Positions 11,210-38,300 are shown, counted from the first letter of the stretch. The stretch: DNA of 64,000 nt from an uncultured Gammaproteobacteria bacterium (GCA_964486685.1 CAZAOE010000001.1:12538-76537); one strand, 5' to 3'. The notes: a model not told the origin generated them from the sequence alone. Program-made: numbers and translations.

Positions 11210-11400
11210 AGTATTCCCATTTTAACAGAAAAAATTTATCTTTCAAGTATTTTTATGGACAGTTTATCCACTAAGTATAAACACTTGATTTTTTATAATA
11301 TCTATGTTATATTTTTATGTATAAAAATACAACTATTTGTGTTTTTTTGTTATAATTTAGTAGTCAGCGGTTGGTAGTATTTATGTATTCAAAATGTATT

Positions 11401-11665
11401 AAAAATTAAATATAGTTAATTAAGCGCCGTTAGCTCCCCCCTTCGCCAAAGCTACGGAGGGCAGGCAGTTGGTACCCAACTTCGCTAACAAAGTATATTG
11501 TAATAATTTTATATAGATATTAAAAATTAAATATAGTTAATTAAGCGCCGTTAGCTCCCCCCTTCGCCAAAGCTACGGAGGGCAGGCAGTTGGTACCCAA
11601 CTTCGCTAACAAAGTATATTGTAATAATTTTATATAGATATTAAAAATTAAATATAGTTAATTAA
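11401..11665 (+). repeat. Tandem array of 121-bp units (2.2 copies), each carrying the tRNA-Lys promoter and first 13 nt of the tRNA
   Basis: Units start at 11401, 11522 and 11643. Each has aaaaattaaatatagttaattaaGCGCCGTTAGCTC followed by a 53-nt GC-rich insert (ccccccttcgccaaagctacggagggcaggcagttggtacccaacttcgctaac). The third unit continues into the intact tRNA. Confidence 0.8.
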
Positions 11666-11741
11666 GCGCCGTTAGCTCAGTTGGTAGAGCAGCAGCCTTT
11701 TAAGCTGATGGTCGCAGGTTCGAATCCTGCACGGCGTACCA
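11666..11741 (+). tRNA. tRNA-Lys (anticodon UUU), with encoded CCA
   Basis: GCGCCGT-TA-GCTC-AGTTGGT-AGAGC-A-GCAGC-CTTTTAA-GCTGA-TGGTC-GCAGG-TTCGAAT-CCTGC-ACGGCGT-A-CCA. Cloverleaf with perfect D and T stems; 7-nt anticodon loop C-U-UUU-A-A. Confidence 0.9.
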
Positions 11742-11743
11742 TA

Positions 11744-11815
11744 AACCACTCACTGCGTTCGGGTTTATGGTAAACCATAAATTACTCACTGCGTTCGGGT
11801 TTATGGTAAACCATA
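11744..11815 (+). repeat. Tandem 35-bp repeat (x2) with internal hairpin, directly 3' of the tRNA
   Basis: ccactcactgcgttcgggtttatggtaaaccataa appears twice; tttatggtaaaccataaa is palindromic. Confidence 0.6.
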
Positions 11816-17389: not shown

Positions 17390-17959
17390 GTGAATAATTG
17401 GTTTGAAAAAGATAATCAAGATTGGAACAATAAATTACTTACTGAAGATGAAAAAATAAAAATAGACCTTGAAAAATTAAAATCATTTACAGATATCTTT
17501 AGCGATAGAATTAAAATATACTATGGTGAAGATCCAAAAAATACTGGTTCGCTTAATTTTACTTATGCAATTAGAAAAATATTTGGTAAACGCAATACTA
17601 TAACGAAAGATTTACAAAGAATAAAACATTATCTTGATTTAAATGAATCACAAAATAATAGTCCATATATATCTGTAGATAAAAATGGTAAAAAATATAT
17701 AGAAATTAGAAAATGTAATTTTGATGTGGAAATTTCCGTTGATGCTATTAAAATGTTGAAAAATTATAATACTTTTTGTATTTTTTCAAGTGATGCGGAT
17801 TTTGTTTATTTAAATAGATTTTTGAAGATAAATAATAAAAAAATTATTATTGTTAAGGGTGGATATATCACCACTAAATTAAAAGAAACAGCTGATTTAG
17901 TTATTAATGCCCAAAAAATTAAAAAGCACATAGCTAAGATAGAAAAAACAAAAACCTGA
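17390..17959 (+). CDS. NYN/PIN-like domain protein
   Basis: C-terminal FCIFSSDADFVYLNRFLKINNKKIIIVKGG resembles the NYN (LabA-like) core; GTG start. Confidence 0.35.
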   Translation: MNNWFEKDNQDWNNKLLTEDEKIKIDLEKLKSFTDIFSDRIKIYYGEDPKNTGSLNFTYAIRKIFGKRNTITKDLQRIKHYLDLNESQNNSPYISVDKNGKKYIEIRKCNFDVEISVDAIKMLKNYNTFCIFSSDADFVYLNRFLKINNKKIIIVKGGYITTKLKETADLVINAQKIKKHIAKIEKTKT

Positions 17960-18184
17960 CATAGTCAGGCCCTTGTGGAAAGTTTTCCCGAATTAACCTC
18001 GGGCAGGTATAAATTAAATATAGTCAATTAAGTCAATTAAGTCAATTAAGTTATCCACAATTAAAATAAAAAATAAATTTAAATATATGGCTGATAAAAA
18101 ATTAGAACAAATTTTAATTAATTTAAGGAAAAAGGGGTTGACTAATCGTATATAATCGTATATAATCAGATATATATAAAATGT

Positions 18185-19264
18185 ATGATTAAAAACAGAC
18201 TAAATCAAAGAATAAAGATTTCTCATGAAATAATTTTAAAAGTTTCTCAAATTGATGAATTAAAGGGACAGTGGAATGGCTCTTTGGTTTTGAATCCTAA
18301 AATTTTATATCAATTACAAAAATCAGTGGTGATTACTAGCTCGGCTTCTTCCACTCGAATTGAAGGAGCACAGATGACCGATCAAGAAGTGGAGCGTTTT
18401 CTGCGTGGCATTAAGCAAAAAACTCCTCAAAACAGAGATGAGGCAGAAGTGGCTGGTTATGCTGACTTATTGGGTAGGGTTTTTGATAATTATTCCAGCT
18501 TAGAGATTACTGAAGGCCAAATTTTGGGGTTTCATAAAATCATGTTATCTTTTTCAGAAAAGGATAAAGAACATTGCGGAAAGTATAAAAACAAAAATAA
18601 TACCGTCGCTATTATTGAACAGGGTAAAATTAAAAAAATTCTTTTTCAACCTACTCTGCCTTACTTAGTTAAAAAAGAAATGGATGATTTATTAGTATGG
18701 TGGCAAGAAAGACAGGGGAATAATGATTTGCATCCTTTGGTGATGATTGCTAATTTTATTTTTGAATTTTTAGCTATCCATCCTTTTGTTGACGGCAACG
18801 GCCGTCTCTCGCGAATTTTGATTAATTTATTAATGTTGCAAAAAGGTTATGGTTTTGTTCCTTATGTTTCTTTAGAAGAAATTTTTGAGGAAAGGCAGTC
18901 AGAATATTATTTAGCTCTAAGAAAAACCCAAAAAAGTCATAAAACTAAAAATGAAGATATTACACCTTGGTTAAATTTTTTTCTTGATGTTATTTTAGTA
19001 CAAACCAAAAAAGCTTTGAATTTATTGGCAGGGAATGAAAACAGAAAATTGCTTTCTGAAGCACAAGAAAAAGTTTATAATTTATTTGTTGATGGTATTG
19101 AATTGAAGGTTTCTGAAATTCAAAAGGAAATAAAAATTCCATTACCAACAGTGAAGCAATCTATGTCTAAATTAGTAGAATATAAATTAGTTGAAAAAAA
19201 TGGACAAGGTCCAGCAACCAGATATAAAAAGATAAAAAAGATTCTAGAGAAAGATAAAAAATGA
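18185..19264 (+). CDS. Fic family protein (Fic/DOC AMPylation fold) with C-terminal winged-helix
   Basis: Canonical Fic motif HPFVDGNGRLSR. Confidence 0.85.
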   Translation: MIKNRLNQRIKISHEIILKVSQIDELKGQWNGSLVLNPKILYQLQKSVVITSSASSTRIEGAQMTDQEVERFLRGIKQKTPQNRDEAEVAGYADLLGRVFDNYSSLEITEGQILGFHKIMLSFSEKDKEHCGKYKNKNNTVAIIEQGKIKKILFQPTLPYLVKKEMDDLLVWWQERQGNNDLHPLVMIANFIFEFLAIHPFVDGNGRLSRILINLLMLQKGYGFVPYVSLEEIFEERQSEYYLALRKTQKSHKTKNEDITPWLNFFLDVILVQTKKALNLLAGNENRKLLSEAQEKVYNLFVDGIELKVSEIQKEIKIPLPTVKQSMSKLVEYKLVEKNGQGPATRYKKIKKILEKDKK

Positions 19265-19341
19265 TTGTTTAGAAAGTTTTATGAAGGTTGAAAATAGTAA
19301 ATTGATTAATTAAATAATTTAAATAATTAAAAATATTAAAT

Positions 19342-22300
19342 ATGTTTAAAGAATATTTTAAGAATATTTTAAAAACTTTAAAGCCTGGAGATGCCCGAGA
19401 AGAAAGTTTTTATCCAGCATTAAAGATATTTATAGAAAATCTCAGTGAGTTTGAAAATAAAAAAATTAGCGTTACATTATTACCCAAAAAACACGAGGGG
19501 CAGAGTCCAGATTTTAGGATTAGAGAAGGCAACAAGATCATTGGTTATATTGAAGCAAAGGATTTTCAAAAACACTCAGATGATCTTGATGAAATAGAGG
19601 ACAGTAATCAGTTGAAAAGATATAAAAAGGCATTTCCTAATTTAATATTGACTAATTTTTTTGAATTTAGATTGTATAGAAAGGGTATATTAGCAGATAA
19701 GGTACGGATTGGGCGACCTTTTATATCATATGAATTAAAAGTAGTGCCCCCAGTTGAAAATGAAAAAAAATTTATATCACTAATATCGGAGTTTTTTGCT
19801 TTTTCCATTCCAGAAATAAAAAAACCAAAAGAATTGGCCATTGAACTTGGCAATAGAACGCATTTTTTAAAAGAAAAAATATTAGAAGAAATAAAAAACG
19901 ACAATTCAGAAATTATTGGTTTTTATCAAGCATTTAAAAAGCATTTGATTATTAATTTAACAGAAGATCAATTCGCTGATCTTTATGCTCAAACCATTAC
20001 TTATGGTTTATTCACAGCCAGAACGCGGACTGCATGTAAAGAATTTAGGAGGGAAACAGCGGTAAAATTTATTCCTCAAAGCATTCCATTGCTTAAAAAA
20101 ATATTTGCTTTTATCTCGTCTGAAGAATTGCCAAAATCAATGGAATGGATTGTAGATGAAATTTCGCAAGTATTAGCCGTCGCTAATATATCTAAAATAA
20201 TAAAGGATTTTTATAAGAAAGGAAAAGGCACCGACCCTATTATCCATTTCTATGAAACATTTTTAGGTGAGTATGATCCCAAAGAAAGAGAGAAGAGGGG
20301 AGTTTATTATACACCAGAGCCAGTTGTTTCTTATATTGTTCGCTCAGTTAATCAAATTTTAAAAGAAAAATTTAATAAAAAGGATGGGTTTGCTACTTCA
20401 TCTGTAACGGTTTTAGACCCAGCTGCTGGTACGCTCACTTTTCCGGCTGAAGCAATAAAATTAGCTAAAAAGGAGATTCAAAAAAAGTATGGACCTGGTA
20501 TTTGGCAAAGCACTGTAAAGGGTCATATTTTAAAAAATTTTTATGCCTTTGAACTTTTAATGGCACCGTATGTCATAGGACACTTAAAAATTTCTTTACT
20601 TCTCGAAGAATTAGGTTATAAGATGAGAAATGATGATAAATTTAATTTTTATCTTACAAACACTTTGGAAAATGAAGCACCTGACCCAAATCAATTTCCG
20701 GGTATTTTTGAAAGAGTTTTGGCTAAAGAATCAGAGCAAGCATTAGAGGTTAAAGAAAAAATTCCCATTATGGTAGTTATGGGCAATCCACCATATTCTG
20801 GAGTTTCTGAAAATAAAGGGGACTGGATTTTGGAACAGATTAAAGAATATAGACAAATTAGGGGTAAACCACTTGGCGAAAGAAAAGATTGGCTACAGGA
20901 TGATTATGTAAAATTTTTTCGCTTTGCCCAGTGGAAAATTGAAAAATTAGGAACTGGTATTTTGGGCTTTATTACTAATCATGCCTGGATTGATAATCCA
21001 ACTTTTAGGGGAATGCGTTATTCTTTAATGAAAACATTTGATGAAATTTATATTCTTAATTTGCATGGTAGTGTTTTAAAAAAAGAAAAAACGCCAGAAG
21101 GCCAAAAAGACGAAAATGTTTTTGATATTCAACCAGGTGTAGCAATTACAATTTGTATAAAACATCAAGAAAAAATTGATGAAAAAAAAGTTTTATATGC
21201 TGAACTTTGGGGATTACGGGGAGACATTAATAAACCAAAGACGAAATATTATTATTTAAATAAGAATGATGTTAAATCGACGAAGTGGCAACCAATTATT
21301 CCTAAAAAGCCTTACTATTTTTTTGTTCCAAAATCAGAAAAAGGACATAAAGAGTATGATAAGTTTTGGAAAATTACAAACATCTTTCCTATAAATAGTA
21401 CTGGTATTGTTACTGCCCATGATCATTTTGCTATTGATTTTAAATATGAAGAATTGAAAAATAAAATTAGCGCTTTTAAATTTTCACCGCACGATGATAA
21501 TTACGTAAAAAAAGATTATCAACTTAAAGAAAATTATGCATGGCGTGTCTCTAAAGCAAGATATGAGTTAAAACAAGTTGATAACTGGCAGAATTATTTT
21601 ACTAAAATTTTGTATCGTCCTTTTGATGAACGATGGATTTATTATCATTCTTCTGTGGTCTGGCGAGTTAGAAAAAATGTTATGAAACATATGTTAAAAC
21701 AGAATTTAGCCCTTACTACTTGCCGCCAACAATCAATTGCTGGATTTCAGCACGTATTAGTAACTAATTTAATTACAGAATCTTGTTATGTCTCAAACAG
21801 AACAAAAGAGATAGGATATGTTTTTCCCCTATACCTTTACTCTTCTGAAAATAAGCAACAAACTATCCTTGATGGACAAGAAAAATTAGATTTAAAGGGA
21901 GCTCAACATAAATTAAAAATTAAGAAAGAAAAAGAACCAAATATCAATCCAGAATTATTTGACGCGCTTAAAAGTTGTTTTGACAAAGAGCCAACGCCGG
22001 AAGAAATTTTTTATTACATTTATGGTACCCTGTATTCAAATACATATAGGAAAAAATATGAGGAATTTCTTAAAATTGATTTTCCGAAAGTTCCTTTTAC
22101 AAAGGATTACAAATTATTCAAAAAAATTTCTAAACTTGGTGAGGAGTTAGTGAATTTACATCTACTAAAATCACCAAAATTGAATAAACCGTTAGCTAAA
22201 TTTTATGGAAAGAATGATAATAGTGTAAAAATCCGTAAATATGATAAAAATAAAAGACGAATCTATATAAATGAAAAGCAATATTTTGAACCAATAAATA

Positions 22301-22497
22301 AAGAAATTTGGGAATATATGATTGGAGGATATCAAGTTTTGGATAAATGGCTTAAATATAAAAAAGGCGAAACTCTGTCTACTGATGACATAAAACATTA
22401 TTGCCGGATTGCCACAACCCTAGTGGAAACAATTAAAATACAGAAAGAAATAGATAATATCTATCCTGAGATTGAAAAAAAATTAATTAATTCATGA
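19342..22497 (+). CDS. Type IIG/IIL single-chain restriction-modification enzyme (MmeI-like)
   Basis: N-terminal PD-(D/E)xK (PDFRI ... GYIEAKD), then gamma-class N6-adenine methyltransferase motifs (VLDPAAGTLTF as motif I, VVMGNPPYSG as motif IV) and a long C-terminal target-recognition region; 1051 aa. Confidence 0.6.
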   Translation: MFKEYFKNILKTLKPGDAREESFYPALKIFIENLSEFENKKISVTLLPKKHEGQSPDFRIREGNKIIGYIEAKDFQKHSDDLDEIEDSNQLKRYKKAFPNLILTNFFEFRLYRKGILADKVRIGRPFISYELKVVPPVENEKKFISLISEFFAFSIPEIKKPKELAIELGNRTHFLKEKILEEIKNDNSEIIGFYQAFKKHLIINLTEDQFADLYAQTITYGLFTARTRTACKEFRRETAVKFIPQSIPLLKKIFAFISSEELPKSMEWIVDEISQVLAVANISKIIKDFYKKGKGTDPIIHFYETFLGEYDPKEREKRGVYYTPEPVVSYIVRSVNQILKEKFNKKDGFATSSVTVLDPAAGTLTFPAEAIKLAKKEIQKKYGPGIWQSTVKGHILKNFYAFELLMAPYVIGHLKISLLLEELGYKMRNDDKFNFYLTNTLENEAPDPNQFPGIFERVLAKESEQALEVKEKIPIMVVMGNPPYSGVSENKGDWILEQIKEYRQIRGKPLGERKDWLQDDYVKFFRFAQWKIEKLGTGILGFITNHAWIDNPTFRGMRYSLMKTFDEIYILNLHGSVLKKEKTPEGQKDENVFDIQPGVAITICIKHQEKIDEKKVLYAELWGLRGDINKPKTKYYYLNKNDVKSTKWQPIIPKKPYYFFVPKSEKGHKEYDKFWKITNIFPINSTGIVTAHDHFAIDFKYEELKNKISAFKFSPHDDNYVKKDYQLKENYAWRVSKARYELKQVDNWQNYFTKILYRPFDERWIYYHSSVVWRVRKNVMKHMLKQNLALTTCRQQSIAGFQHVLVTNLITESCYVSNRTKEIGYVFPLYLYSSENKQQTILDGQEKLDLKGAQHKLKIKKEKEPNINPELFDALKSCFDKEPTPEEIFYYIYGTLYSNTYRKKYEEFLKIDFPKVPFTKDYKLFKKISKLGEELVNLHLLKSPKLNKPLAKFYGKNDNSVKIRKYDKNKRRIYINEKQYFEPINKEIWEYMIGGYQVLDKWLKYKKGETLSTDDIKHYCRIATTLVETIKIQKEIDNIYPEIEKKLINS

Positions 22498-22547
22498 ATT
22501 TTTAGGAATTAATGGAGGTGGGAGGGAATTTAAAGTAAACAATAATC

Positions 22548-23135
22548 ATGGAAATAAAAAAAGCAAAATATCAAATAGAAATTACTACTATAGCTACCGA
22601 CCACAGGCTTATTAGGGATAAGTGGTTGAATATAAAAAGAATTCTTGATGCAATTTATAAAGAACTTTCTCCATTAATAGATGATCAACAAACGATATCT
22701 ATAAATAAATTTTTTTTGCCAATAGAACAGAAAAAATTATTTCAATCTGTGCTAGAAAAAATGTGGGAAGATAATATAATAGATTATTATAATTACGAAA
22801 CACCTGGTATAACAACTTCTGAATCGATTCGTAAATTTTTAAGAGGCGAAAATTTTGTAGTAAAAAATAGAAATATTTTTGAAAATTACAGAAAAAAAAT
22901 TTCAGAGTTTTATGATTTTATTGAAAAAGATGGGAGAAAAAGATTTCCAGAAGTATATAGTATAACACAATCAAACAGTAAAAAAATAATAAATAATAAA
23001 TTAGCAGACACTAATCAACAAAACAGAAAAATTGAACCAAAATGGTGGGAAAAAACTTGGATACAAATTATAGTATTACTGGGTTCATGCGCTGGAATTA
23101 TTGGATTGTTTTTTTTGTTTACAAGTAAAAAGTGA
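22548..23135 (+). CDS. Hypothetical tail-anchored membrane protein
   Basis: Single C-terminal TM helix (IQIIVLLGSCAGIIGLFFLF); sits immediately upstream of the ftsK-like ORFs. Confidence 0.4.
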   Translation: MEIKKAKYQIEITTIATDHRLIRDKWLNIKRILDAIYKELSPLIDDQQTISINKFFLPIEQKKLFQSVLEKMWEDNIIDYYNYETPGITTSESIRKFLRGENFVVKNRNIFENYRKKISEFYDFIEKDGRKRFPEVYSITQSNSKKIINNKLADTNQQNRKIEPKWWEKTWIQIIVLLGSCAGIIGLFFLFTSKK

Positions 23136-23150
23136 TTTAGAAAAAATAAC

Positions 23151-24236
23151 ATGATAGTTGAACTACAAAAAGCTTTTGAATCAAAACAATTTCAAAATCG
23201 TCAAACAGAAACTTTAATTCCTATTGGGGTAAGTTTTAATTTTGAATATGTTTTTGAGGATTTAAAAGATTTAAGATCTATAATAATAGCTGGAGCCACT
23301 GGTTCTGGAAAATCAACCTTTAATCATTGTTTAATAACTAGTTTATTAAAACAAAATAATAATATTTCTCTGATTTTATATGATGCTAAAAGAGTAGAGC
23401 TTTTCCCTTATAATGGAATAGAATGTTTGTTGGGAGAGGTTACTACTAAGACAGATGATATAAAAGAGCAATTTGAATATTTAGAAAAAGAATTTTCTAT
23501 TAGATCTGCTAGTAAAAAAGAAGGTGTTGATATATATAAAAATTATGATCCTATAATTATAGTTATTGAAGAATGTTCGAGTATTATGTGTCAGCAAGGA
23601 GAGTATTTTAATCAAATAATTCCTAAAATCGCCAAGGAGGGTCCAGATTTGAATATGTATATAATTATATCTACTGCCCGACCAGCGATCAATGTTTTTA
23701 CTGAAGAAATAAAAGAATCCTTTTTCGCTAAAATAGCTTTTGCCACCGCTAGTTTAGATAATTCAGACACTATAATAGGAGAAACTGGAGCAGAAAAACT
23801 TTTAGGTGAGGGAGATATGTTATTTAAAAAAGGAGACGAGCCCATAAGAAGATTACAGGGTTTTTATGTTAGTGATGAAGAGGTGAAAAATGTTGTTAAT
23901 GAGGATATGGCTGGGCAGAAAGGATTAAATAATGAGCAAGATGAAATAAAAAATGAATTGGAACCAATTGATTCTAAAATTGATATTAGTAAAGAAAGAA
24001 TTAAAAGAACATTTGATCATTTTGATATTAAAGTGAAAATGGGGAAAGTTAATATTGGTCCAATGGTAACTCAATTTATAATAAAGCCTAAAAATGGAGT
24101 TAAATTATCTAAAATAATGGCCCTAGAAAATGTTTTAGCTATGAATCTAACAGCAAGGAGTGTTAGAATAGATGTTTCTTTTTTTGAAAAAGGTTTAATT
24201 AGTATTGAAGTGTCTAATTATAATTTAACTAAATAA
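23151..24236 (+). CDS. FtsK/SpoIIIE-family DNA translocase fragment: intact motor (beta) domain followed by an alpha domain
   Basis: Walker A IIIAGATGSGKST, Walker B IIIVIEE and the beta-domain end motif GEGDMLFKKGDEPIRRLQGFYVSDEEV. The C-terminal KVNIGPMVTQFIIKPKNGVKLSKIMALENVLAMNLTARSVRID matches the FtsK alpha-domain signature. Confidence 0.7.
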   Translation: MIVELQKAFESKQFQNRQTETLIPIGVSFNFEYVFEDLKDLRSIIIAGATGSGKSTFNHCLITSLLKQNNNISLILYDAKRVELFPYNGIECLLGEVTTKTDDIKEQFEYLEKEFSIRSASKKEGVDIYKNYDPIIIVIEECSSIMCQQGEYFNQIIPKIAKEGPDLNMYIIISTARPAINVFTEEIKESFFAKIAFATASLDNSDTIIGETGAEKLLGEGDMLFKKGDEPIRRLQGFYVSDEEVKNVVNEDMAGQKGLNNEQDEIKNELEPIDSKIDISKERIKRTFDHFDIKVKMGKVNIGPMVTQFIIKPKNGVKLSKIMALENVLAMNLTARSVRIDVSFFEKGLISIEVSNYNLTK

Positions 24237-24237
24237 T

Positions 24238-25266
24238 ATGCCTCATATAGATATAAATAAAAAGAGAAATGACCCCAATGCTAGAGTACCTCTGAGTTTG
24301 GCTTGGAAAGAGGAAATAATGCATTTAAATAAAGATGAACTTATAATCCCCCTAGGAAGAGACAAAAGTCAAAAACTGCATTTTATAAATTTAAAAGAAT
24401 GGCTTCATATTTTAAGTGCGGGAATGGCTCTTTCTGGTGTGGGTATGTTTAGTAGGGTTACTCTTTTTTCTCTAATTAAACAAAGATCTCATCAAGATTT
24501 AAGAATTATTTTAATTGATCCTATTCGTAGATTTAGTAATTTTAATAATATTTCTCATTTATTATTTCCAATTATTCATAAAGCTAAAAAAGCTTTATCG
24601 GCTTTAGAATGGTGCGTTTTTGAAATAGAAAGAAGATATCAGATATTATTTAAAACAAGGAAAAAAGATATATATTCTTATAATGAAAAGGGAAATCAAG
24701 TTGTATTTCCTAATATTGTAATATTTATTAGTGAGTTAGGAGAACTTATGCCCGATAGAGATATAGAAACAGCTTTGGTTAGAATAGCACAAATGGCTAA
24801 GGCCGTAGGAATACATCTTATCATAGGAACCCAGATGTTAAATAAAGAAATTATTACCGATTTAATATTTTCTAATATATCAGTTAGGGTAGGATTTCAA
24901 GTCCCTTCAGAAGAAGAAGCAGAGGTTTTAGAAATATCTGGAATGGAAACACTTATTGGTCAAGGAGATATGATTTATCAAGATTATAATGGTAAGAGAT
25001 TAGAATTACAAGGATTCCATATTAGTGATGAAGAAATAGAAGAATTTATTAAAAATGAAATTACAGATGATAGAGTGAATGAAGAATGGTTATATAAAAA
25101 AGCTAAGAAAATTATTTTAGACCAAAAGCAAGCTTCGGCTACTCTTTTACAGAGAAGATTGAGTATTGGTTATGCTAAAGCCTCTAGAATAATTGACAAA
25201 ATGGAAGAAGAAGGTTTAGTGAGTCCTCAGAATGGTCCTAAACCACGAAAGATTTTAAAACAATGA
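24238..25266 (+). CDS. FtsK-family fragment: beta domain with degenerate Walker A plus a gamma (winged-helix KOPS-binding) domain
   Basis: LHILSAGMALSGVGMFS stands where AGTTGSGKS is expected (no Lys). IILIDPI, GQGDMIYQ...LQGFHISDEE and a C-terminal ATLLQRRLSIGYAKASRIIDKMEEEGLVSP gamma motif are present. It starts 1 nt after the stop of the previous ORF. Confidence 0.7.
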   Translation: MPHIDINKKRNDPNARVPLSLAWKEEIMHLNKDELIIPLGRDKSQKLHFINLKEWLHILSAGMALSGVGMFSRVTLFSLIKQRSHQDLRIILIDPIRRFSNFNNISHLLFPIIHKAKKALSALEWCVFEIERRYQILFKTRKKDIYSYNEKGNQVVFPNIVIFISELGELMPDRDIETALVRIAQMAKAVGIHLIIGTQMLNKEIITDLIFSNISVRVGFQVPSEEEAEVLEISGMETLIGQGDMIYQDYNGKRLELQGFHISDEEIEEFIKNEITDDRVNEEWLYKKAKKIILDQKQASATLLQRRLSIGYAKASRIIDKMEEEGLVSPQNGPKPRKILKQ

Positions 25267-25628
25267 ATATCTATCTTGACATTGATGGTGTCTTATTAAA
25301 AAAGCATGGCGAACCCGCTGACAATGTTTTAGATTTTTTAAAAGAAATGACAGATAATCACGATTGCTATTGGCTAACTACTCATTGTCGTAATGGTGAA
25401 AGTAATGCCGTAGAATATTTAGAAGATAAATTACCCAATGAAGCTTTAGAATATCTAAATAAAATAAAACCAGCTTATTGGGATACTTTAAAAACTGAGG
25501 CCATAGATTTTTCAAAGAAGTTTAAATGGTATGATGATTATATAATGGAAGCAGAGGAGAGCGTTTTAAAAGAAAATAATTGTTTGGATAGTTTTGTGAG
25601 GGTTGAGAATAGTAAATTAATATATTAA
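25263..25628 (+). CDS. Small HAD-like protein
   Basis: N-terminal IYLDIDGVLL resembles HAD motif I (DxDGVL); 121 aa; overlaps the upstream stop by 4 nt. Confidence 0.3.
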   Translation: MNIYLDIDGVLLKKHGEPADNVLDFLKEMTDNHDCYWLTTHCRNGESNAVEYLEDKLPNEALEYLNKIKPAYWDTLKTEAIDFSKKFKWYDDYIMEAEESVLKENNCLDSFVRVENSKLIY

Positions 25629-25632
25629 ATAT

Positions 25633-26046
25633 ATGTCTAAAAAATTAAAATTGTTTTTTATAGTGGCTTTGTTTTTTATTATATTAACTCCCCAAATTTC
25701 TCAAGCTACAATGGCAGTTAATGAAATGATTATTAATCCCGAAACTAAAGAGTGTACTTGGTTTAATAGTGGAGATGAATGTCAGGAATGTGAAAAGCCT
25801 AGAGGGTGGGTAACTTATTCAGGGGGTGATGAAAGTTATGTAGAAGGAGAAGAATGTCCGCTGGGATATAAAAGGATCAAAGATTTAAAAATAAATTGTC
25901 ATGTTCGAGATTGGAGAGCTTTTTCTAATGCGATGTGTTCTGGTTTTATTGCTAGTAGATATGCCTTCTGGTATAAAATTTTCCCTATCATTTTAATAGG
26001 ATTAATAATAATTTTAATTATATTTTTGAAGAAAAGAAAAAAATAA
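25633..26046 (+). CDS. Cys-rich secreted protein with C-terminal membrane anchor
   Basis: Signal peptide, eight Cys in the ectodomain and a C-terminal TM IFPIILIGLIIILIIFL followed by KKRKK. Confidence 0.4.
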   Translation: MSKKLKLFFIVALFFIILTPQISQATMAVNEMIINPETKECTWFNSGDECQECEKPRGWVTYSGGDESYVEGEECPLGYKRIKDLKINCHVRDWRAFSNAMCSGFIASRYAFWYKIFPIILIGLIIILIIFLKKRKK

Positions 26047-26061
26047 AATAATTTTTCAAAA

Positions 26062-26097
26062 ATCACTTCAAGTAATATGTCTGAGGTGATTTTTTTG
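26062..26097 (+). terminator. Hairpin plus T-run terminator
   Basis: AATCACTTCAAG ... CTGAGGTGATT followed by TTTTTTT. Confidence 0.4.
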
Positions 26098-26112
26098 TTT
26101 ACTATTGAATTC

Positions 26113-26160
26113 TGTCAAGTTTAAGTTTTATTGACAAGTTGTTAATAATTAAGATACAAT
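26113..26160 (+). promoter_or_regulatory. Sigma70-like promoter (TTGACA-18-TACAAT) overlapped by inverted repeat TGTCAA-N12-TTGACA; candidate autoregulatory operator
   Basis: The -35 TTGACA at 26131-26136 is the right half of the inverted repeat; the -10 TACAAT lies at 26155-26160. Confidence 0.35.
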
Positions 26161-26169
26161 TAAATTAGG

Positions 26170-26946
26170 GTGTGGATAAGTAATAATTTTAAAAATATGC
26201 ATAAAATACAACAAAAAATTCTAAATCTTGCTGGAGACAAAAACTTGGCAAATTTAACTTTGCGTAAAATAGGAGAATTTATCGGAGAAAAAGGAAGTCC
26301 GCAAAAGATAAAACATCATTTAGAAAAATTAAAAGAAAAAGGGCTTTTGATTCAAAGTATTGATGGCAAAGAGATTAAAAGAATAAGTTCAAATAATATT
26401 GATAAAAACACGAAGTTAATATCATTACCAATTTATGGCTCGGCTAATTGTGGGCAGGCCTTGGAATTGGCTAATAATACTATAGAAGAATATTTGAAAG
26501 TTTCTAAAAGCATTTTGGGAGAGAGTTTGCTTAAAAAAATTAAAGATTTATTTGTTTTAAAAGCAGTAGGGAATTCTATGAATCAAGCCAATATTGATGG
26601 TGATTCAATTGAAGATGGAGATTATGTTATTATTGATAGAAAACAAAAAAGTCCAGATAATAGCGATTATGTTGTTTCGATAATTGATGGGGCTGCAAAT
26701 ATAAAAAAGTTTTTTGTTGATAAAAATAATAAACAAGTTGTCTTGGTTTCGGAGTCATTTTCTGATACTGCTCCAATACATATACATAAAAATGATTTAA
26801 ATGATTATTCTATTTGTGGTCGAGTGGTAAAAGTAATGAAAAGACCAGAAAATTTAGAGGCCTGGCATAATGCCGGAGCTAAGGATACTTTAAAAAATTT
26901 AGGCCCCATATCCAAAGAAGAACATAAGTATTATATGAATTTATAA
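26170..26946 (+). CDS. LexA-like repressor (N-terminal winged-helix plus S24 peptidase domain)
   Basis: LexA-type N-terminal DNA-binding domain (KIQQKILNLA...TLRKIGEFIG...HHLEKLKEKGLL). C-terminal S24 Ser/Lys dyad context (AVGNSMNQANIDGDSIEDGDYVIIDR ... ANIKKF). Confidence 0.7.
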   Translation: MWISNNFKNMHKIQQKILNLAGDKNLANLTLRKIGEFIGEKGSPQKIKHHLEKLKEKGLLIQSIDGKEIKRISSNNIDKNTKLISLPIYGSANCGQALELANNTIEEYLKVSKSILGESLLKKIKDLFVLKAVGNSMNQANIDGDSIEDGDYVIIDRKQKSPDNSDYVVSIIDGAANIKKFFVDKNNKQVVLVSESFSDTAPIHIHKNDLNDYSICGRVVKVMKRPENLEAWHNAGAKDTLKNLGPISKEEHKYYMNL

Positions 26947-27281
26947 AACAGAAGGAAATTTGGTTAGTTCAATATCCCCAAGATTCAGTCGGTCATGAAT
27001 ATCGAAAAGAACGGCCGGCTTTGGTTATTGAATCTGATTCACAAATAAAAAGAACGAAGGTTTTTAGTGTTATTCCCTTGACTTCAAATTTAAATAATAA
27101 AACCAGGGATGATATTTTAGTTAAAACAAATAAGAATAATAATTTATTCCGTGATTCAATTTTAAAAGTTCACCATTTAGAATCCTTTGATCAATTTAGA
27201 TTTATTAAAAAAATAGGCGAGATTAATGATAAGATTTTAGATAAAGTAAAAAATTATTTAAAAATTCATTTTGATTTTTGA
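26928..27281 (+). pseudogene. MazF/PemK-family toxin homolog with no canonical start codon
   Basis: The in-frame reading EIWLVQYPQDSVGHEYRKERPALVIESD...VIPLTS matches MazF (IWlVdf.P..G.E..K.RPalVis...ViPiTs). The frame opens after a TAA at 26925-26927 and has no ATG/GTG/TTG until the TTG at 27021, which is already inside the conserved core. The 5' end overlaps the lexA-like stop. Confidence 0.5.
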
Positions 27282-30502: not shown

Positions 30503-32188
30503 ATGTTATTAAAAGCAAAAATAAAAAATAGTTTTAACTTTTCTAAAATAACTGTTGTCAGTTTAGTTTTAATGTCAGCGGTTATTTTTTTATTACCCAG
30601 CATTTCTCAAGCCCAAATTTTAGTTCCCCAAGTAGATAATTTAAGTACGGGCAGTATTGAAGAGATAGCTGGGACTGTTATTCAATTGGTTTTGGGCTTA
30701 TTGGGCTTAATTGCTTTAGTTATTGTTTTATATGCCGGTTTTATGTGGATGACTTCTGGAGGAAATGAAGAAAAAATATCTAAGGCCAAAAAAATCTTAA
30801 GTGCTGGAGTAATTGGACTTTTAATTATTTTGGCCTCTTATGCTATCACCAGCTTTATTTTACAAGTAGCTCAAGGAGGAGGTGGCGGTGGTGGTGGACA
30901 CGGAGATTATACGGAAGGATTGGGTGGATTTGGCGGAGGAGCATTAGGCGGAGGGGTAATTGAATATCATTATCCGGCTCGAGATGCTACTAATATTCCG
31001 CGTAATACTTTAATTATGATTAGTTTTAAAGTTAGGGTTGCTACTAGTAGTGTAATAGCAGAATCTTTTACTGATAATCCGGGGCTTGGGCTTTGTAATA
31101 ATTATACAGAAAACAACACTAATGGTAATGAATGTGGAATTTTAAGTAGCGATATAGAGATAATTGATTATGGTTCTGAAAATATTCCCTTGGATCCAGA
31201 AGATGTAGTTGCTGTTTTAACTGCAGATGGAAAAAATATTTTACTTAGGCCCATAGAGTATTTAGGAAACGGAGAAAATTCTACTGATACAATTGTGTAT
31301 TTGGGAGCAGGAATGGTAACTGCTGATGGTAAGGACTTATTTGGCGGTTTAGAAAATGGATATGCTTGGCAATTTGAAGTCAGTACTTTTTTAGATCTTA
31401 CGCCTCCAACTGTTAGTTTTGTCTGGCCAGGGCAAGACCAGATAGTGGCACGTAATGCTATTATTCAAGTTAATTTTTCGGAACCCATAAATATTTTAAG
31501 CGTAGATGGAAATATTATTGTTACAAATTTACCAGATGAAATTTTAGCAGGAGAATTAAAAATTAGTAATCAGTATAAAACAATAGAATTTTTAGCTGCT
31601 GGAGACTGCGGAGGAGCAAGGGTTAATTCCTGCGGTGAAGAAATATTTTGTTTACCAGCTTTGGCAAATATTGAAACTTTAGTTGAAGCCGGAGAAGCCG
31701 ACGATCCTTTAAGTGGAATTAGTGATGCGGCTGGTAATTTATTGGCAGAAGATTATATTTGGGATTTTAATACTACTAATAATGTTTATACTATTTCTCC
31801 AATAATAGAATCTACTGGTCCAGTTAATAATGAAGAAAATGTTCAGCTGAATCCAAATATTTGGGCTTTATTTGATTTAACAGATGTCAATATTTCGCCT
31901 AGTTCTTTAAATACAGATAGTTTTTATATTTATGATGCTGATAGTTGTGTTGATTTAGGTCAAGACGATCCAGATTTAGAAGCTGGGCACAAAGAAAATA
32001 TTGCTGGAGATAATTGTTTCCCAGCTTATTCCGTTTACATGAGCGATGACAATAAGAAGTGTAATATTCAAATATATAATGCCTTAGAAAATAATATTCT
32101 TTATTATCCGCGAATTACTTCTGAAATTAAGGATTCTTATGGAAATTGTTTTAATCCAGCTGAGGGTCCAGGCGGGAGCGAGCGGTAA
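30503..32188 (+). CDS. Surface protein with VirB2/TrbC-like pilin-type N-terminal anchor domain, poly-Gly linker and Ig-like (Big) extracellular domains
   Basis: Signal peptide, then two hydrophobic helices separated by a short charged loop (VIQLVLGLLGLIALVIVLYAGFMWM - TSGGNEEKISKAKKIL - SAGVIGLLIILASYAITSFIL), which is VirB2/TrbC topology. GGGGGGGG linker follows. TPPTVSFVWPGQDQIV...VNFSEPIN is an SbsA/Big_5-like Ig domain. Confidence 0.55.
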   Translation: MLLKAKIKNSFNFSKITVVSLVLMSAVIFLLPSISQAQILVPQVDNLSTGSIEEIAGTVIQLVLGLLGLIALVIVLYAGFMWMTSGGNEEKISKAKKILSAGVIGLLIILASYAITSFILQVAQGGGGGGGGHGDYTEGLGGFGGGALGGGVIEYHYPARDATNIPRNTLIMISFKVRVATSSVIAESFTDNPGLGLCNNYTENNTNGNECGILSSDIEIIDYGSENIPLDPEDVVAVLTADGKNILLRPIEYLGNGENSTDTIVYLGAGMVTADGKDLFGGLENGYAWQFEVSTFLDLTPPTVSFVWPGQDQIVARNAIIQVNFSEPINILSVDGNIIVTNLPDEILAGELKISNQYKTIEFLAAGDCGGARVNSCGEEIFCLPALANIETLVEAGEADDPLSGISDAAGNLLAEDYIWDFNTTNNVYTISPIIESTGPVNNEENVQLNPNIWALFDLTDVNISPSSLNTDSFYIYDADSCVDLGQDDPDLEAGHKENIAGDNCFPAYSVYMSDDNKKCNIQIYNALENNILYYPRITSEIKDSYGNCFNPAEGPGGSER

Positions 32189-32340: not shown

Positions 32341-35300
32341 ATGCTTAAGAAAAGAAAAAATTTATTTTTAATCTTTATACTATTTATAGTAATAGGTTTT
32401 GTATTACCAAATATTTCATCTGCTCAAATTTTAGTTCCACAAGTAGATAATCTTAGTACAGGTAGCATTGAAGAGATAGCTGGGACTGTTATTCAATTGG
32501 TTTTGGGCTTATTGGGCTTAATTGCTTTAGTTATTGTTTTATATGCCGGTTTTATGTGGATGACTTCTGGAGGAAATGAAGAAAAAATATCTAAGGCCAA
32601 AAAAATCTTAAGTGCCGGAGTAATTGGTCTGATTATTATTTTGGCCTCTTATGCTATAACCAGCTTTATTTTACAAGCAGCCCAAGGAGGAGGTGGCGGT
32701 GGAGGCGGTGGAGGTCAAGGATGTACTCCTAATGAATGTACGGGTTGTTATCGGTGTGATCTTGATGGTAATTCTCATTATGACGAGACTTGTCCTACCT
32801 GTGGTTCTGGTGGGGAAACATATAATTTTAGTGTAATTACTAATAGTCCTCAAGGAGAAAATATTTCTTTGTGCAGTTTAATTCAAGTTAAATTTAATAA
32901 TATTGTTGATGAAACTACAGTTAATTCTCAAAATTTTGGTTTATATGACTGTGGAGCCAATTCTTGTGCTGGCAATTTAATCAACAATTTAACGCCAGAT
33001 GGACAGTTTATAATAGAAGAAGATATAATTCAGTTTATTTTAGGAGAGGATTATGAGCAGAAGCATTATTATGCAGTTAATATCATACATGATGGGATTG
33101 CAGATGAAGACGGAGAGGCCTTGTTAGTAGATTATTATTGGGAGTTTAAAACTGGGAATGAAACAGATACAGAGCCACCTACTGTTATTTCAGTATTTCC
33201 TAAAGATGATCAAGAAGATGTTTGTTTAACTTCATATATTACCGCCGAATTTTCAGAAGATATGGATATGCTTTCTTTAAGAAATGCCTCGTCCTTTTAT
33301 TTATATGAAGACATTGACACTCTATCAGATATAGATTTTTTTCATCAGGTTTATAATGACTCCTTAATTTTATATCCTAACTCTAACTATGAAGCAGTTG
33401 AAGATTACTTCCCTTTATTAAATGGCAGTATTATTAAAGATACTTGTGGTAATTATTTAGATGGTGATGGTGATGGCACTCATCAAGATTCAGATATTGA
33501 TAATTATCCTTCAGAAGGTCCTAGTGAAGAATGGAATTTTATTACCGGAGATAATTTATATTGTACGCCAGAAATTACTGGAGTTGAAAATAATCAAACC
33601 TATTATGACGCCACAGAGAATTTAATTATTTCTGGTCATTATTTAGGGAATAATCCAGTTTTAATTTTTGATAATTCCATAGTCGTAAACCAAACAAGTA
33701 ATTTATGTATGGGAAATGAATATTGGTATGATGGCGCTTGTGTTATTTGGGCCTGGACAGAAGAAGAAATAAAAGTAGCTATACCAGTGACTGGGGGCGA
33801 TAATAACGGAGTTAGGGCCGGAGAAAATTTAGTGGAAGTGCAAACTGATGAAGGCAATGTTAGCGCTAATTTTGATTTATTAAGTCCGCGTATTAATGCT
33901 TTATATCCAGACCAAGGTGGAGTTGGACAATTTATCAGTATTTGGGGAATAAATTTTAAAGAAGATGAAAACATTAATTTAAGTGCTTCCGAGGTTTATT
34001 TTCGTTTTAATCAAGATGAATACATAGAAGCAGATTTACCTTGTGGCCAAGATGCCTGGGAAGATGAACAAATTATTATTTCTGCTCCTAATAATTTGAA
34101 TATAAATAATGTTTATGCTGTGCAAATTAAAAAAGTTTATGATGACGGTACAGAGCGCTGGAGTAATTTAGCGGATTTTTATTTTAATGATGAAGAAGCT
34201 GGACCAGGTCTATGCTCTATTGATAAGGATGAGCTTTTTTTTGAAGACGAATTTAATTTAAATGGAATTAAATTAGGGGACGATATCTTTTATAATAGAG
34301 AAGTAATTTTAGGCGATGATTATAGTTCCATACAAGCTGATGTCTTAGAGTGGACCGGAAACGATGGTGATGGACACAATACAGATGTTGAGGCCATAAC
34401 TCCCTTAATGGGTTCGGCTACAGGAGTAGGCGTTAGAGTAATGGTAGAGGAAACAGCAGGTGAACAAAGATTTAGTAATTATTTAAATGTAGAGATATTG
34501 GCAGATGAATCAACAAATTTTTATATAAATTATACTTCTCCAACCTCAACTCCAATAGGGGGCTATGTGACGATTTATGGTTCTGGGTTTGGAAATAGCC
34601 AAGATGATAAGATGGTTAAGTTTAATATAGGCGGAGATGATTGGACAGATGGAGATTTTGATTTTCCAGATGAATGTTCTACGGCTTTTTGGAGTGATGA
34701 ACAAGTAATTGTTAAAGTACCGGAAACATTTAATGGTTTTGGGTTTCCATTTTCTTCAAAAATAAAAATTATAGATTCAGCTAATTATTTAGAAACTAAT
34801 GCAGTAAATTTTGAAGTTAATAATGAAGGACTTGCTCCTTGTATTTGTAGTGTAAACCCTGAATTTGGAACAAAAGAAAATGAAATTGAAATTGCTGGTG
34901 AGTATTTTGAAGATCCCGATGATGTAGATAACTTTTACTTTAACACAATTTTTGATAACAGCGGAAATTTTATATCTGGAGATTATGCGGATTTTATTAT
35001 AGATTCAGATGAGTTAATGTTTGTAACAGTAACATCAACGCAAACTGGTTTAATTTCAGCTCGCAATATTAATGGCTATGGCAATACTTGGAATTTTGAA
35101 TATATTGAAGCAGGAGCAGACATAACAGGTGTTTGGGATTTTTATGGCTGGAATTTTACTACTTGTGCAGATTGTGAAAATCCAAGAGTGAGTAGAAAAA
35201 TATGTAATTCTAATAACGGTATATCTTTTCCTTCGCCAGAACCAGGAAGTACAGATGTACCACAAGACACTAAACAGGTTTATGCGGCTTTTGAATATCC

Positions 35301-38300
35301 TAGTAGTATGGCCTTACAGATGGACACCAATACCTTGATTACAAATAATATTAATGTTTATAAATGTGCTAGTGGAGAAAATCCAGGAGATTGTAATGCC
35401 CGTGTTTCAATTGATAATATAACAGCAACTCCTATATTTTTATTGTTTAAAACCGTTAATTCTTTAGAAGCAGATTATTGGTATAAGATAGAATTAAACA
35501 CAGACATTACCGATAATGAGGGCTCTAGTTTAATTCCTAATAATAGTGATAATAATGCTTATGAATGGTATTTTCATATAAATAAAGAGGGCGGGCAATG
35601 TGAACCAGAGCAACTAAGTATTGTTCCTGAAAATTATAGTTTGGCTTATCTGACCCCCAAATCAATTTTATATAAAGGATTTTTAATTGATGATGGTTGC
35701 TATATATGTAATGATAGTGGATATAATTATGTATGGGATAAAGATGATCCAAACGGCTTGGTTAATTTTTCAAGTCGTTCGGGTGTTAGTTCTGAAATCA
35801 GTGTTCATCTAAACCAAAATTATAAAATTGGTGATTTACAAATTAGTGCAACATCAACGGATGCTGGTGGCAACGGACAAGAATTATTTGATAAAACTAA
35901 TTTATATATTACAGCAAATTGTGCTTTATTTAATGATGATTGGTCGTCTTGTATTGATAATAATGCTCATCAGGGCTTTGCTTGTTGTTGGGATGATATT
36001 AGTAGTCAATGTGTGAATGATGGTAGCCCAATTTGTATGCGACCATTTGTAAAAGAAATTGCTTGTCAGCCCACTATCACATTAGGTTCGCCTTCCCCAG
36101 TAGCTAGTAGCACAGATGTAGTTAGTAATGCTTTAATTTATATGGAATTTGCTAAAAGCGGAACCAGCACAGTTGATATGGATTTAAACACATATACTGA
36201 TAATTTAGAAATTTATAATTGTACTGATGTTAATGGCAGTTTTGCTGATGATATTTGCGGAAATAATTTATATAATAATTTAAGTTTTAATTATGATGCC
36301 ATTCAAAGCAGTAATTCAGTAGTTTTATATAATCATAATAATTTTATTTTAAACACTTGGTATAAATTAATTGCTACAGAAAATATTCAAGATAAATATG
36401 GTAGTAGTTTACAACCCAAAGAATGGCATTTTAAAGTTGGGGCTGGTTTATGTGACCCAACTAATTTAGAAGTTTCACCAAGTAATTGGACTTTAGAAAT
36501 TGATGAGTCAAAAAAATATACTACCTATTGTTATGACGAACAATGTAATGTTTGTTTGAATAATTATACTTATGAATGGGAGGTGGCAAATCCTAGTATA
36601 GCAGAGCTTAATCCAGATCCAGGTACTAATTCTAGTGCCACTAGCACAGGAAAGGCAATTGGATTTACGCAGATTACTGCTACAACAACCATTAACGGAG
36701 AAGAAATTTCTGACTTTGGAGATTTAACAGTTACTGCTAGTATTGATAATTGTTCTAATTATGGTAGTATAACTCCTTGTAATAACAGTGGTAGTTGTTG
36801 CTGGGATGGTAGTGATTGTTTAACGGGTGTAGGTAATCCAGCTTGCGATGATGAAGAATCATGTAATGATTATGGTGATGAAACAGCGTGTAATGATAGT
36901 CATGGTAGCGATCATCCAAGTCTTAATTGTTGCTGGGCTTTGGACGGTTATTGTACAAGTAATTTATCGGTCTGTGAAATATTTTATAATTGTTCTCAAT
37001 TTAAAGAAGCACTTGATTGTGAACATAGTATAAATAATTGTTGTTGGGGAGAAGACGGTGAATGTTATGGAGACGGCTCGCCAATGTGTAGTAATTTTAA
37101 AGTAATAGAAAATTATCCAGAAGACGCAAGCACAGAGGTTTGTCCAAATACTTTAATTAGAGCCATATTTAATAAAGTTTTAGACGCTGATAGCTTAGCA
37201 GGAAACGTAAATTTATATGTTGAGGAGGGTGTAGGAAATTGGAGTAGTGTAACAACAACTCTTAATTTGTATAATAATTTTGCTGGGCAAGCAGTTTTAA
37301 AAATAATACCAGAATTTTTATTAGATAAAAATGCTGATTATAAAGTTGAATTAACTGATGGAGCAGACGGAATTAAATCAACTTATGGAAATGTTTTAAA
37401 TTGTAGTAATGGAAAATGTTCTTGGATTTTTGCAACAGCAAATACTGTATGCGAATTAAATTATATAGAAATTATAGATCCAATAGATAAGTATTATTTA
37501 TTTACCCAGCCAAATGAGGACAAAAATTTTATAGCGGAAGGAAGAGATATAAATGGAAATACGATAGTATCAATGGCAGGTTATGACTGGTCTTGGTATT
37601 GGGAATCACTTGATGAAGATTTAGTTGATTTGGGAGGCCCATATTCTGATAATGTTACTGCTACAGCTGAAAATGCTAATGGTAATACCATCGTAAGAGT
37701 AAGCGCCCTACCCATACCATCGGAATTAAGGTGTTCGCAAATTGTTAACCAAATTCAATGTGAAGGCGACTCTTGTTGTTGGTTTAATGGGGCTTGTATG
37801 GCTGATTTTACGGAATGTCAAAATACTTGTTCGGTTTTAACAACAGAAGACGATTGTTTAATTAATGATAATTGTATTTGGCAAGACAATATGTGTCATT
37901 TTGAAAACAAGTGGGATTATGATAATAAAGATGGGTATAAAAGTGGGTTAGTTTATCCGGATGAGGCAGAAGTAGAATTATTTATGTGTGAGAATATATG
38001 GCCGAATGTAGGTTCTTTTGAAGATGACGAATATCATTTTAGATTAAAATATTGTCGGGATGGAGGATTGGGTTATTTAGCAACTACCCAGGCAGAAGGT
38101 TTAATAACTACGAATGGGGACGGAAATGAATTATTAAGAGAATATATTTTTAAATATAATAACCCTGTGGCCTTGGAGCTAGAAGATATGAAAGACGAAA
38201 AAACAATTTTAGCTCAAGTAGGATTTTTAGAATTATTTGATAGTCGTTTGAGTTGGAAATTATTGGGTCGAATGTTTGGCCAGTTTATTGATTTATTTAA

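Follow-up and report, generated by a model that had tools for sequence, protein, structure and literature searches.

Does a pair of adjacent FtsK-like genes, one of which encodes a dead P-loop, represent a broken copy of ftsK or the two parts of a motor that functions as a pair? The question is raised by a stretch of 64,000 nucleotides (GCA_964486685.1, CAZAOE010000001.1:12538-76537, deposited as an uncultured Gammaproteobacteria bacterium; the whole stretch is referred to below as the window), in which five co-directional, tightly packed open reading frames (ORFs) span positions 22548-26046 and two of these, ORF A and ORF B, encode proteins of the FtsK family. The window DNA has a GC content of about 30%, is chromosomal, and is read here as coming from Patescibacteria (the candidate phyla radiation, CPR). 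A first-pass annotation, made from the sequence alone, described the locus as an ftsK split into two ORFs with a duplicated motor domain, and suggested either an active-plus-pseudo-ATPase heteromer or a pseudogenised gene. The analysis presented here tips the balance, somewhat beyond an even chance, towards a conserved two-subunit motor of the FtsK family, predicted to assemble as a hetero-ring and to serve as an accessory, island-borne translocase of double-stranded DNA, rather than towards a broken ftsK.

Catalytic residues of ORF A and ORF B

The ORF A protein consists of a beta domain (residues 1-253), a disordered acidic linker (254-273) and an alpha domain (about 274-357). It is matched in Pfam by FtsK_SpoIIIE (E=4e-16) and, as had been proposed for its C-terminus, by FtsK_alpha (residues 271-356, E=1e-19), and in PDB alignments its residues 4-250 fall on the beta domain and 285-357 on the alpha domain of Pseudomonas aeruginosa FtsK (PaFtsK). 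The AlphaFold2 (AF2) model has a mean predicted local distance difference test (pLDDT) score of 82.7, with the linker below 50. The same domain order is found in the full-length relatives P0002, P0003 and P0004; the ORF A-type clade is rare, with about eight clusters at 90% identity out of 5.8 billion. ORF B aligns to the beta and gamma domains of FtsK (FtsK_SpoIIIE, E=4e-23), and the gamma domain noticed in the first-pass annotation is confirmed by a match to FtsK_gamma (PF09397, residues 283-340, E=7e-24) and by alignment of this part to PDB 2J5O and 2VE8. Its AF2 model (pLDDT 88.4) superposes in Foldseek on FtsK motor structures with a root-mean-square deviation of 1.5-1.8 A over about 285 columns and a TM-score of about 0.73.

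The fate of the catalytic residues was read from a MAFFT alignment of 7 ORF A-type, 31 ORF B-type, 6 partner and 17 canonical beta domains, in which residues are numbered after PaFtsK as in a molecular-dynamics paper on its cryo-electron microscopy structure (bioRxiv 10.1101/2022.01.03.474797). According to that paper, Walker A contains K472/S473, Walker B D595/E596 and the sensor T630-Q631, the canonical trans arginine finger is R620, and R548, with N549, provides a second trans residue. The arginine of the TQRP motif was considered as the arginine finger and rejected, because it is the DNA-gripping R632, and the finger R620 sits 12 residues upstream of it (bioRxiv 10.1101/2022.01.03.474797). 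As controls, all 17 canonical domains have K472, D595/E596 and either R or K at position 620.

All seven ORF A-type proteins retain K472/S473, D or E at 595 followed by E596, and R632. Position 620 is Pro or Ala in every one of them, with the motif K-x-G-P-D-L-N in place of the canonical Q-K/M-A-R-A-x-G, and each carries a deletion of about 25 residues that takes out the R548/N549 segment, as is the case in the ORF A protein of the window. The earlier description of ORF A as a complete beta domain thus needs correction: Walker A is intact and Walker B is kept with its catalytic Glu, the Asp being replaced with Glu, but Pro165 stands at the finger position and the second trans segment is gone. 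The ORF B-type proteins display the opposite pattern. K472, S473 and D595 occur in 0/31 of them, Lys or Arg is present at 620 in 30/31, and most have (R/K)(N/D) at 548/549 as well as E596 and the T-Q pair. In ORF B of the window the P-loop lysine and serine are indeed lost (K472->V, S473->G) and Walker B reads FISE (D595->S), while Glu596, the T-Q sensor and a finger lysine, Lys188, are retained.

Judged by these residues, each of the two window proteins lacks the half of the active site that the other retains: the trans half is gone from ORF A and the cis half from ORF B. A complete catalytic set within one subunit, which defines a canonical FtsK, is found in neither ORF A nor ORF B; the residue table places the cis elements in one subunit and the trans elements in the other, which is the partition that characterizes a finger-donating heteromeric ring ATPase. 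The proposed active-plus-pseudo-ATPase heteromer is therefore supported and sharpened to a reciprocal partition, although its active member cannot be regarded as a fully intact motor. A literature search turned up no description of FtsK paralogues that are Walker-A-dead or lack the finger, nor of FtsK modules in Patescibacteria elements.

Between the beta domains of ORF A and ORF B the identity is 23%, compared with 32-40% between either of them and canonical Patescibacteria FtsK. Since both are nearer to canonical FtsK than to one another, a recent tandem duplication, one way to understand the duplicated motor domain of the first-pass annotation, is ruled out.

The dead-P-loop proteins form a family of their own. 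It is a family of stand-alone proteins of about 275 aa; more than 30 sequences were examined, and they fall into 11 or more 50%-identity clusters in a set of 1.84 billion representatives. All of them begin with MP(K)(V/I)D(V/I)N, which corresponds to the canonical alpha/beta junction, all share the loop G-x-ALSGVGMF(R/K)R, and their Walker B reads I(T/S)ELGE. Loop residues G62, S66, G67, G69, M70, F71 and R73 are invariant in 25 ORF B-type sequences. Because the altered P-loop motif has been held invariant across 40-60% divergence, it is under selection, and the gene boundary is accordingly ancient.

Arrangements that combine motors in one chain are also known from other lineages. Proteins P0242-P0264 are giant FtsKs in which two or three complete alpha-beta(-gamma) motors follow one another, and in several of these one motor is Walker-A-dead (P0245, with GSGVS and IAELADL; P0247; P0249). 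Such tandem giants may be fused counterparts of an active-plus-inactive arrangement.

The gene boundary and the module in other loci

Both ORFs lie where the first-pass annotation had placed them, and the ORF B start codon is found one base past the ORF A stop, in another frame. A stop followed by a restart in a different frame exactly at the alpha/beta junction superficially looks like a frameshift, and a decaying ftsK pseudogene or a sequencing or assembly error had to be considered. Such an explanation is hardly credible. The exact ORF A protein is present on at least 23 contigs from independent assemblies, and in three contigs (L008, L009 and L010, one from JGI and two from Logan) the DNA is base-identical to the window over positions 22548-25628. 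In addition, a relative that is 58-62% identical (L001, NCBI GCA_028708725.1) has both ORFs intact, with a beta-alpha gene, a one-base gap and a gene for a dead-P-loop subunit, so that the two-ORF arrangement is conserved, a point that the first-pass annotation had proposed to check. The identical DNA in independent assemblies and the junction kept in L001 rule out a sequencing or assembly frameshift fusing the two ORFs, and the existence of more than 30 divergent ORF B-type proteins with a common start and invariant remodelled P-loop residues argues against decay.

A programmed +1 frameshift joining A and B is unlikely as well. The sequence AAATAAnATG also follows the ORF A homologue of L004, where the next gene is not an FtsK gene and encodes a HAD-HD fusion, which points to an ordinary coupling junction rather than to a frameshift site. 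Furthermore, stand-alone ORF B-type proteins share the start Met, and ORF B-type proteins begin at the common residue even when no alpha domain is encoded upstream.

Comparison of related loci revealed the module in several shuffled forms. L001 encodes a beta-alpha protein, a dead-P-loop subunit, a separate gamma protein and a HAD-like protein; L004, a beta-alpha protein and the HAD-HD fusion; L005, a gamma protein, a 138-aa protein and a beta protein; L096, a beta-gamma protein, a HAD protein and a dead-P-loop subunit; L100/101 and L104, a beta protein and a dead-P-loop subunit; L102, L103 and L105, a divergent beta protein, a small protein, a dead-P-loop subunit and a HAD protein; L111, an alpha-beta-gamma protein, a Macro protein and a dead-P-loop subunit; L013, a gamma protein and a dead-P-loop subunit; and L011, L012, L097 and L106, a dead-P-loop subunit alone. 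A Walker-A-intact FtsK-like gene lies directly upstream of the dead-P-loop gene, on the same strand, in the window and in L001, L096, L100/101, L102, L103, L104 and L111. There is no synteny between the window and L001 beyond the module. Restriction-modification (R-M) genes of different types are among the neighbours (Type ISP/IIG in the window and L111, Type III in L005, Type II in L096, a ParB-methylase in L001), as are large serine recombinases, which adjoin the module in L012, L013 and L097, primase or DnaA-like genes, toxins (zeta, PemK, RhuM and Gp49) and, in the window and L001, S24 repressors.

ORF A-type and ORF B-type proteins are rare, and canonical four-transmembrane (4TM) FtsKs of Patescibacteria are plentiful; a scan of genome contigs with the ORF B-type alignment, a query that includes the pattern GAExLLGQGD common to all FtsKs, returned 80 loci, all of them canonical ftsK and none with a dead P-loop. 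The shuffled forms in island and mobile-element contexts, the lack of synteny with L001 and the rarity of the family mean that the module is probably accessory or borne by mobile elements and is not the septal FtsK of the cell. The idea of a split of the organism's essential ftsK is accordingly not supported, and that of a decayed mobile-element gene is probably half correct: the module would be accessory or mobile, but it is conserved and not decayed.

Several of these loci belong to recognizable elements. L012, L013, L097 and L116 are small Patescibacteria integrative elements with a large serine recombinase, DUF5659, a primase-like Zn-ribbon protein or HTH_36 and conserved small ORFs, inserted beside housekeeping genes such as those for sigma-70 or murB. 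HD_4 or HD-domain proteins are encoded a few genes upstream of the modules of L096 (5782-6558), L111 (1047-1826) and L004 (1564-2760), the last of which also has the HD domain fused to the HAD-like protein, and trypsin-like proteases are encoded upstream in L103 and L112.

A putative hetero-ring and the alternatives

A nucleotide pocket in an FtsK ring is made complete by the finger of the neighbouring subunit. A homo-ring of A would therefore lack the fingers for its pockets, and one of B the pockets for its fingers. In a mixed ring, subunit A would supply the cis half (Walker A, the catalytic Glu and the equivalent of the DNA-gripping Arg632) and subunit B the trans half (Lys188 at 620 and K-D at 548/549), and ATP would be hydrolysed only where the finger of B enters the pocket of A. 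In the simplest arrangement A and B would alternate in an (AB)3 ring, with sites that are live at three interfaces and dead at the other three, following the logic of the alpha3beta3 ring of F1-ATPase. With one gamma domain on each B subunit, the ring would have three to guide its loading on DNA; in the structure of gamma bound to the FtsK orienting polar sequence, KOPS (PDB 2VE9), three gamma domains occupy one recognition site. The ring would also contain three alpha domains, each on a tether of 20-30 residues, and because the boundary between the two ORFs coincides exactly with the point at which alpha passes into beta in canonical FtsK, the tethered alpha domain of A may dock in trans on a neighbouring B, strapping the two together. 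The genes are translationally coupled, through TAA-T-ATG and then through ATGA into the HAD-motif gene, and the module would most likely be used for transfer, segregation or resolution of the element. The domain content, the residue pattern, the degree of conservation and the genomic contexts are direct observations, whereas we infer the hetero-oligomer (from residue patterns and gene linkage), its stoichiometry, its substrate and its biological role.

When two subunits of an engineered Escherichia coli FtsK hexamer are dead, translocation still proceeds at wild-type velocity (PMC2868570), and this tolerance makes a ring of three live and three dead subunits plausible. Several observations, however, weigh against a two-subunit motor. 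Engineered hexamers with four dead subunits were nearly inactive in vivo, three dead subunits not being among the combinations tested (PMC2868570). In ORF B of the window clade the DNA-gripping R632 is replaced with Met, so that half of the ring would grip DNA poorly. L109 and L110 have an ORF A-type gene without any ORF B-type gene within 7 kb on each side, and ORF A-type proteins may thus not strictly need B; conversely, in L011, L012, L013, L097 and L106 an ORF B-type gene has no P-loop partner within 7 kb. The partners found elsewhere are heterogeneous, and those of L111 and L104 have a finger of their own. As regards mobility, viral contigs scanned with the ORF B-type-specific N-terminal alignment yielded no relatives, and the island in the window has no recombinase and no convincing att-like direct repeats flanking it.

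Some of these points are what one would expect if ORF B-type proteins were finger-donating pseudo-subunits that regulate, inhibit or recruit other FtsK motors, including that of the host, so that the adjacency of A and B would be one case and not an obligate pair; separate stacked rings are also conceivable. The ORF B-type genes that stand alone or with a gamma-domain protein only, several of them in serine-recombinase elements, and the fully competent partners fit such a scheme, which we nevertheless consider unlikely: the finger has been lost specifically in all ORF A-type proteins, a loss that makes little sense unless a dedicated donor exists, and two divergent genomes show tight translational coupling between A and B. 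It can also be imagined, with slightly better but still low odds, that ORF B-type proteins are pseudo-subunits of mobile elements that carry the trans half only and co-assemble with dedicated finger-less partners, as in the window, or, where they stand alone or beside nothing but a gamma-domain protein, with host FtsK, thus capturing or re-targeting the host DNA pump, in which case the pair in the window would be an end-point at which the partner has become dependent. That the split pair is the only FtsK of the organism, a lineage-specific re-engineering of an essential segregation translocase with the upstream tail-anchored protein as its membrane anchor, is improbable to the same degree as the regulatory scheme. 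The window is chromosomal and rich in housekeeping genes, with ftsA and ftsZ about 20 kb downstream, the gamma domain is a textbook FtsK one, and neither another FtsK-like ORF within the 64 kb nor an integrase in the window was found. On the other hand, the window amounts to 6-9% of a typical genome of the phylum, the membrane ORF is not among the conserved parts of the module, and the module is found in relatives in shuffled forms and unrelated neighbourhoods; the family is very rare, and canonical 4TM-alpha-beta-gamma FtsKs are abundant in Patescibacteria. Less probable still is a part in an anti-phage or anti-plasmid defence system with an FtsK-like ATPase, such as SspFGH or MADS. The Type ISP/IIG enzyme, the SoFic-like Fic protein, the NYN nuclease and the PemK toxin are encoded immediately around the pair, the module has R-M systems next to it in L111, L096 and L005, and in PADLOC the C-terminus of SspH and mad8 are partially matched (E 1e-9 to 1e-26). 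These matches, however, span the generic FtsK-like ATPase domain only and are far weaker than those to FtsK, no other Ssp or MADS components were found, possession of alpha and gamma domains is characteristic of true FtsK translocases, and adjacency is weak evidence since defence islands and mobile elements overlap.

To our knowledge, FtsK is the fastest DNA pump known, and the coordination of its six identical subunits is debated. A natural pair of the kind favoured here, if real, would provide a ready-made asymmetric motor with three defined active interfaces, on which sequential and stochastic firing could be told apart, and a clear example of the evolution of pseudo-enzyme subunits in ring ATPases. 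Should the capture of a host pump by pseudo-subunits prove true, the FtsK family would have its first natural heterohexamer of the F1-like kind. The mobile elements of Patescibacteria are poorly known, and the combination of an FtsK-like motor, a dead-P-loop partner, a gamma domain and a HAD-motif protein would add a previously undescribed island or integrative-element module to them. For annotation, "FtsK" calls of this kind should be taken neither for frameshifted pseudogenes nor for the division gene.

Surroundings of the module and comparison with known motors

Table 1. Features of the FtsK-like module and its immediate surroundings, in window coordinates
Feature	Position	Strand	Remarks
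NYN nuclease, SoFic-like Fic, Type ISP/IIG restriction-modification enzyme	17390..22497	+	directly upstream of the module
195-aa ORF	22548..23135	+	one C-terminal transmembrane (TM) segment; 15 nt upstream of ORF A
ORF A, 361 aa	23151..24236	+	permuted order, beta before alpha (Pfam; PDB alignments; AF2)
ORF A Walker A, GATGSGKS	23292..23315	+	residues 48-55, intact (residue table)
ORF A Walker B, IIIVIEE	23553..23573	+	residues 135-141; Asp -> Glu, catalytic Glu retained
ORF A KEGPDLN	23634..23654	+	Pro165 at the arginine-finger position, PaFtsK R620 (residue table)
Gene junction TAA-T-ATG	24234..24240	+	translational-coupling type; reads ...ACT AAA TAA T ATG...
ORF B, 342 aa	24238..25266	+	degenerate beta (residues 1-275) and gamma winged helix (283-340)
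ORF B remodelled P-loop, AGMALSGVGMFS	24418..24453	+	L65, V68, G69 replace G469, K472, S473
ORF B KKDIYSYN	24661..24684	+	equivalent of PaFtsK R548/N549; K-D retained at 548/549
ORF B QMAKAVGIH	24790..24816	+	Lys188 at the arginine-finger position (residue table)
Gamma-domain recognition helix region, LLQRRLSIGYAKASRIIDKMEEEGLV	25144..25221	+	Pfam, PDB alignments
HAD-motif protein, 121 aa	25263..25628	+	NIYLDIDGVLL, YWLTTHC, FKWYDD; start overlaps the ORF B stop (ATGA)
Membrane protein, 137 aa	25633..26046	+	4 nt past the HAD-like gene; not conserved in related loci
S24 (LexA/CI-like) repressor	26170..26946	+	homologue beside the L001 module
PemK/MazF toxin	27021-27281		downstream of the module; no obvious antitoxin ORF

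The HAD-like protein, which carries the classic HAD motifs (DxDG, a conserved T and DD), is encoded by the commonest neighbour of FtsK-like modules and is found in 8 of the loci compared. It has no significant match in Pfam, NCBIfam, PDB or PHROG. The family includes at least 4432 homologues of about 125-145 aa, all annotated as 'hypothetical' and without a Pfam match, and is not exclusive to the module, since members are also found alone beside nrdAB and in an FtsK-less serine-recombinase element (loci L113-L117). The gene is absent from 80 canonical ftsK loci, which rules it out as a marker of the canonical ftsK locus. The upstream 195-aa ORF does have the C-terminal membrane segment for which the first-pass annotation called it tail-anchored (a single hydrophobic stretch, residues 174-192, Kyte-Doolittle 2.49), and it is packed against ORF A in an operon-like manner; yet it has no family match and no homologue beside any related module compared, and its membership in the module is doubtful.

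Together with its neighbours, the module is part of a defence-island-like run at 17390-27281, in which the SoFic-like Fic protein (E=1e-46 in PADLOC) and the Type ISP/IIG enzyme (E=3e-269) are well matched. Promoter-like and terminator-like sites are no commoner here than expected by chance, save for a good promoter match, the best of the region (11/12), just upstream of the S24 gene. Housekeeping genes of the window include those for purD, a P-type ATPase, HisRS, LepB, YbeY, FtsA, FtsZ, NrdR, RadA, DnaB, RecR and glycogen synthases. Several other features of the window deserve mention. Upstream of tRNA-Lys(UUU) (11666-11741) there are two perfect 121-nt tandem units and a partial third (11397-11809), each unit containing an AT-rich promoter-like word and the first 13 nt of tRNA-Lys followed by a GC-rich non-tRNA stretch, and a 2x36-nt repeat follows the tRNA gene; a 25-nt word of the tandem unit has a 92% copy at 18008-18032, upstream of the Fic gene. 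The Rfam LOOT RNA (RF03000) is matched at full length and above the gathering score at 50506-50635 on the minus strand (72 bits). Two proteins encoded at 30503-32188 and 32341-41157, one of them of 2938 aa, have N-termini like T4SS_pilin/VirB2 and Big_5 domains, and this pair resembles the pilin clusters of Patescibacteria type IV secretion loci.

Among known systems, SftA is a soluble FtsK relative, and the module proteins resemble it in being soluble: neither ORF A nor ORF B matches the 4TM domain (PF13491) or has a TM segment. Among the known systems are the FtsK/SpoIIIE/SftA translocases of chromosomal double-stranded DNA (PDB 2IUU, 2IUS, 6T8B), and both by sequence (E values of 1e-34 to 1e-42) and by fold the alpha, beta and gamma domains of the module are nearest to true FtsK. 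ORF A and ORF B score 59.4 and 82.4 bits against PF01580, above its gathering score of 24, but with 110 and 136 bits they fall far short of the equivalog cut-off of 1566 of NCBIfam NF007615. In contrast to canonical FtsK, which is one chain in the order alpha-beta-gamma, the domains of the module are distributed over two polypeptides, beta-alpha and then dead-P-loop beta-gamma, no subunit has the full catalytic set, and the genes lie in a genomic island. EccC/EssC of type VII secretion systems likewise combine active and degenerate FtsK-like domains, which are sometimes split (EccCa/EccCb). Their domains, however, are stacked in one membrane-anchored chain without alpha or gamma domains and work with partners of the secretion system, of which none (WXG100, EccB/D and others) was found among the window ORFs, and the matches of the module to EccC/EssC are weak in sequence (E 1e-10 to 1e-13, far below cut-offs) and in fold.

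In F1/V1-ATPases catalytic and non-catalytic subunits alternate, and the non-catalytic one donates the arginine finger. The module would resemble them in that its cis and trans catalytic elements are divided between two RecA-like paralogues, but the homology extends only to the ASCE (additional strand, catalytic Glu)/RecA fold, the module would act on DNA, and its hetero-ring is inferred, not observed. Engineered FtsK heterohexamers (Crozat et al. 2010, PMC2868570) demonstrate that the ring tolerates interspersed Walker A/B-dead subunits (2/6); these, however, were covalent trimers with fingers in both live and dead subunits and had no cis/trans partition.

TraB of Streptomyces and TcpA-type proteins are FtsK-like motors that transfer double-stranded DNA of conjugative plasmids and integrative elements (PMC12857230). 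Like the module, they combine an FtsK-like motor with a winged-helix DNA-recognition domain. They are carried by mobile elements with recombinase and replication genes; modules related to that of the window lie in serine-recombinase elements, but no recombinase was found in the window itself. They differ from it in that TraB and TcpA are single, fully competent subunits, and the sequence similarity is limited: the NCBIfam TraB model matches the module at E=0.04-0.055, and the matches to TcpA (E 1e-9 to 1e-13) are weaker than those to FtsK both in sequence and in fold. The role of the module would be comparable to that of TraB/TcpA-type motors rather than to that of septal FtsK.

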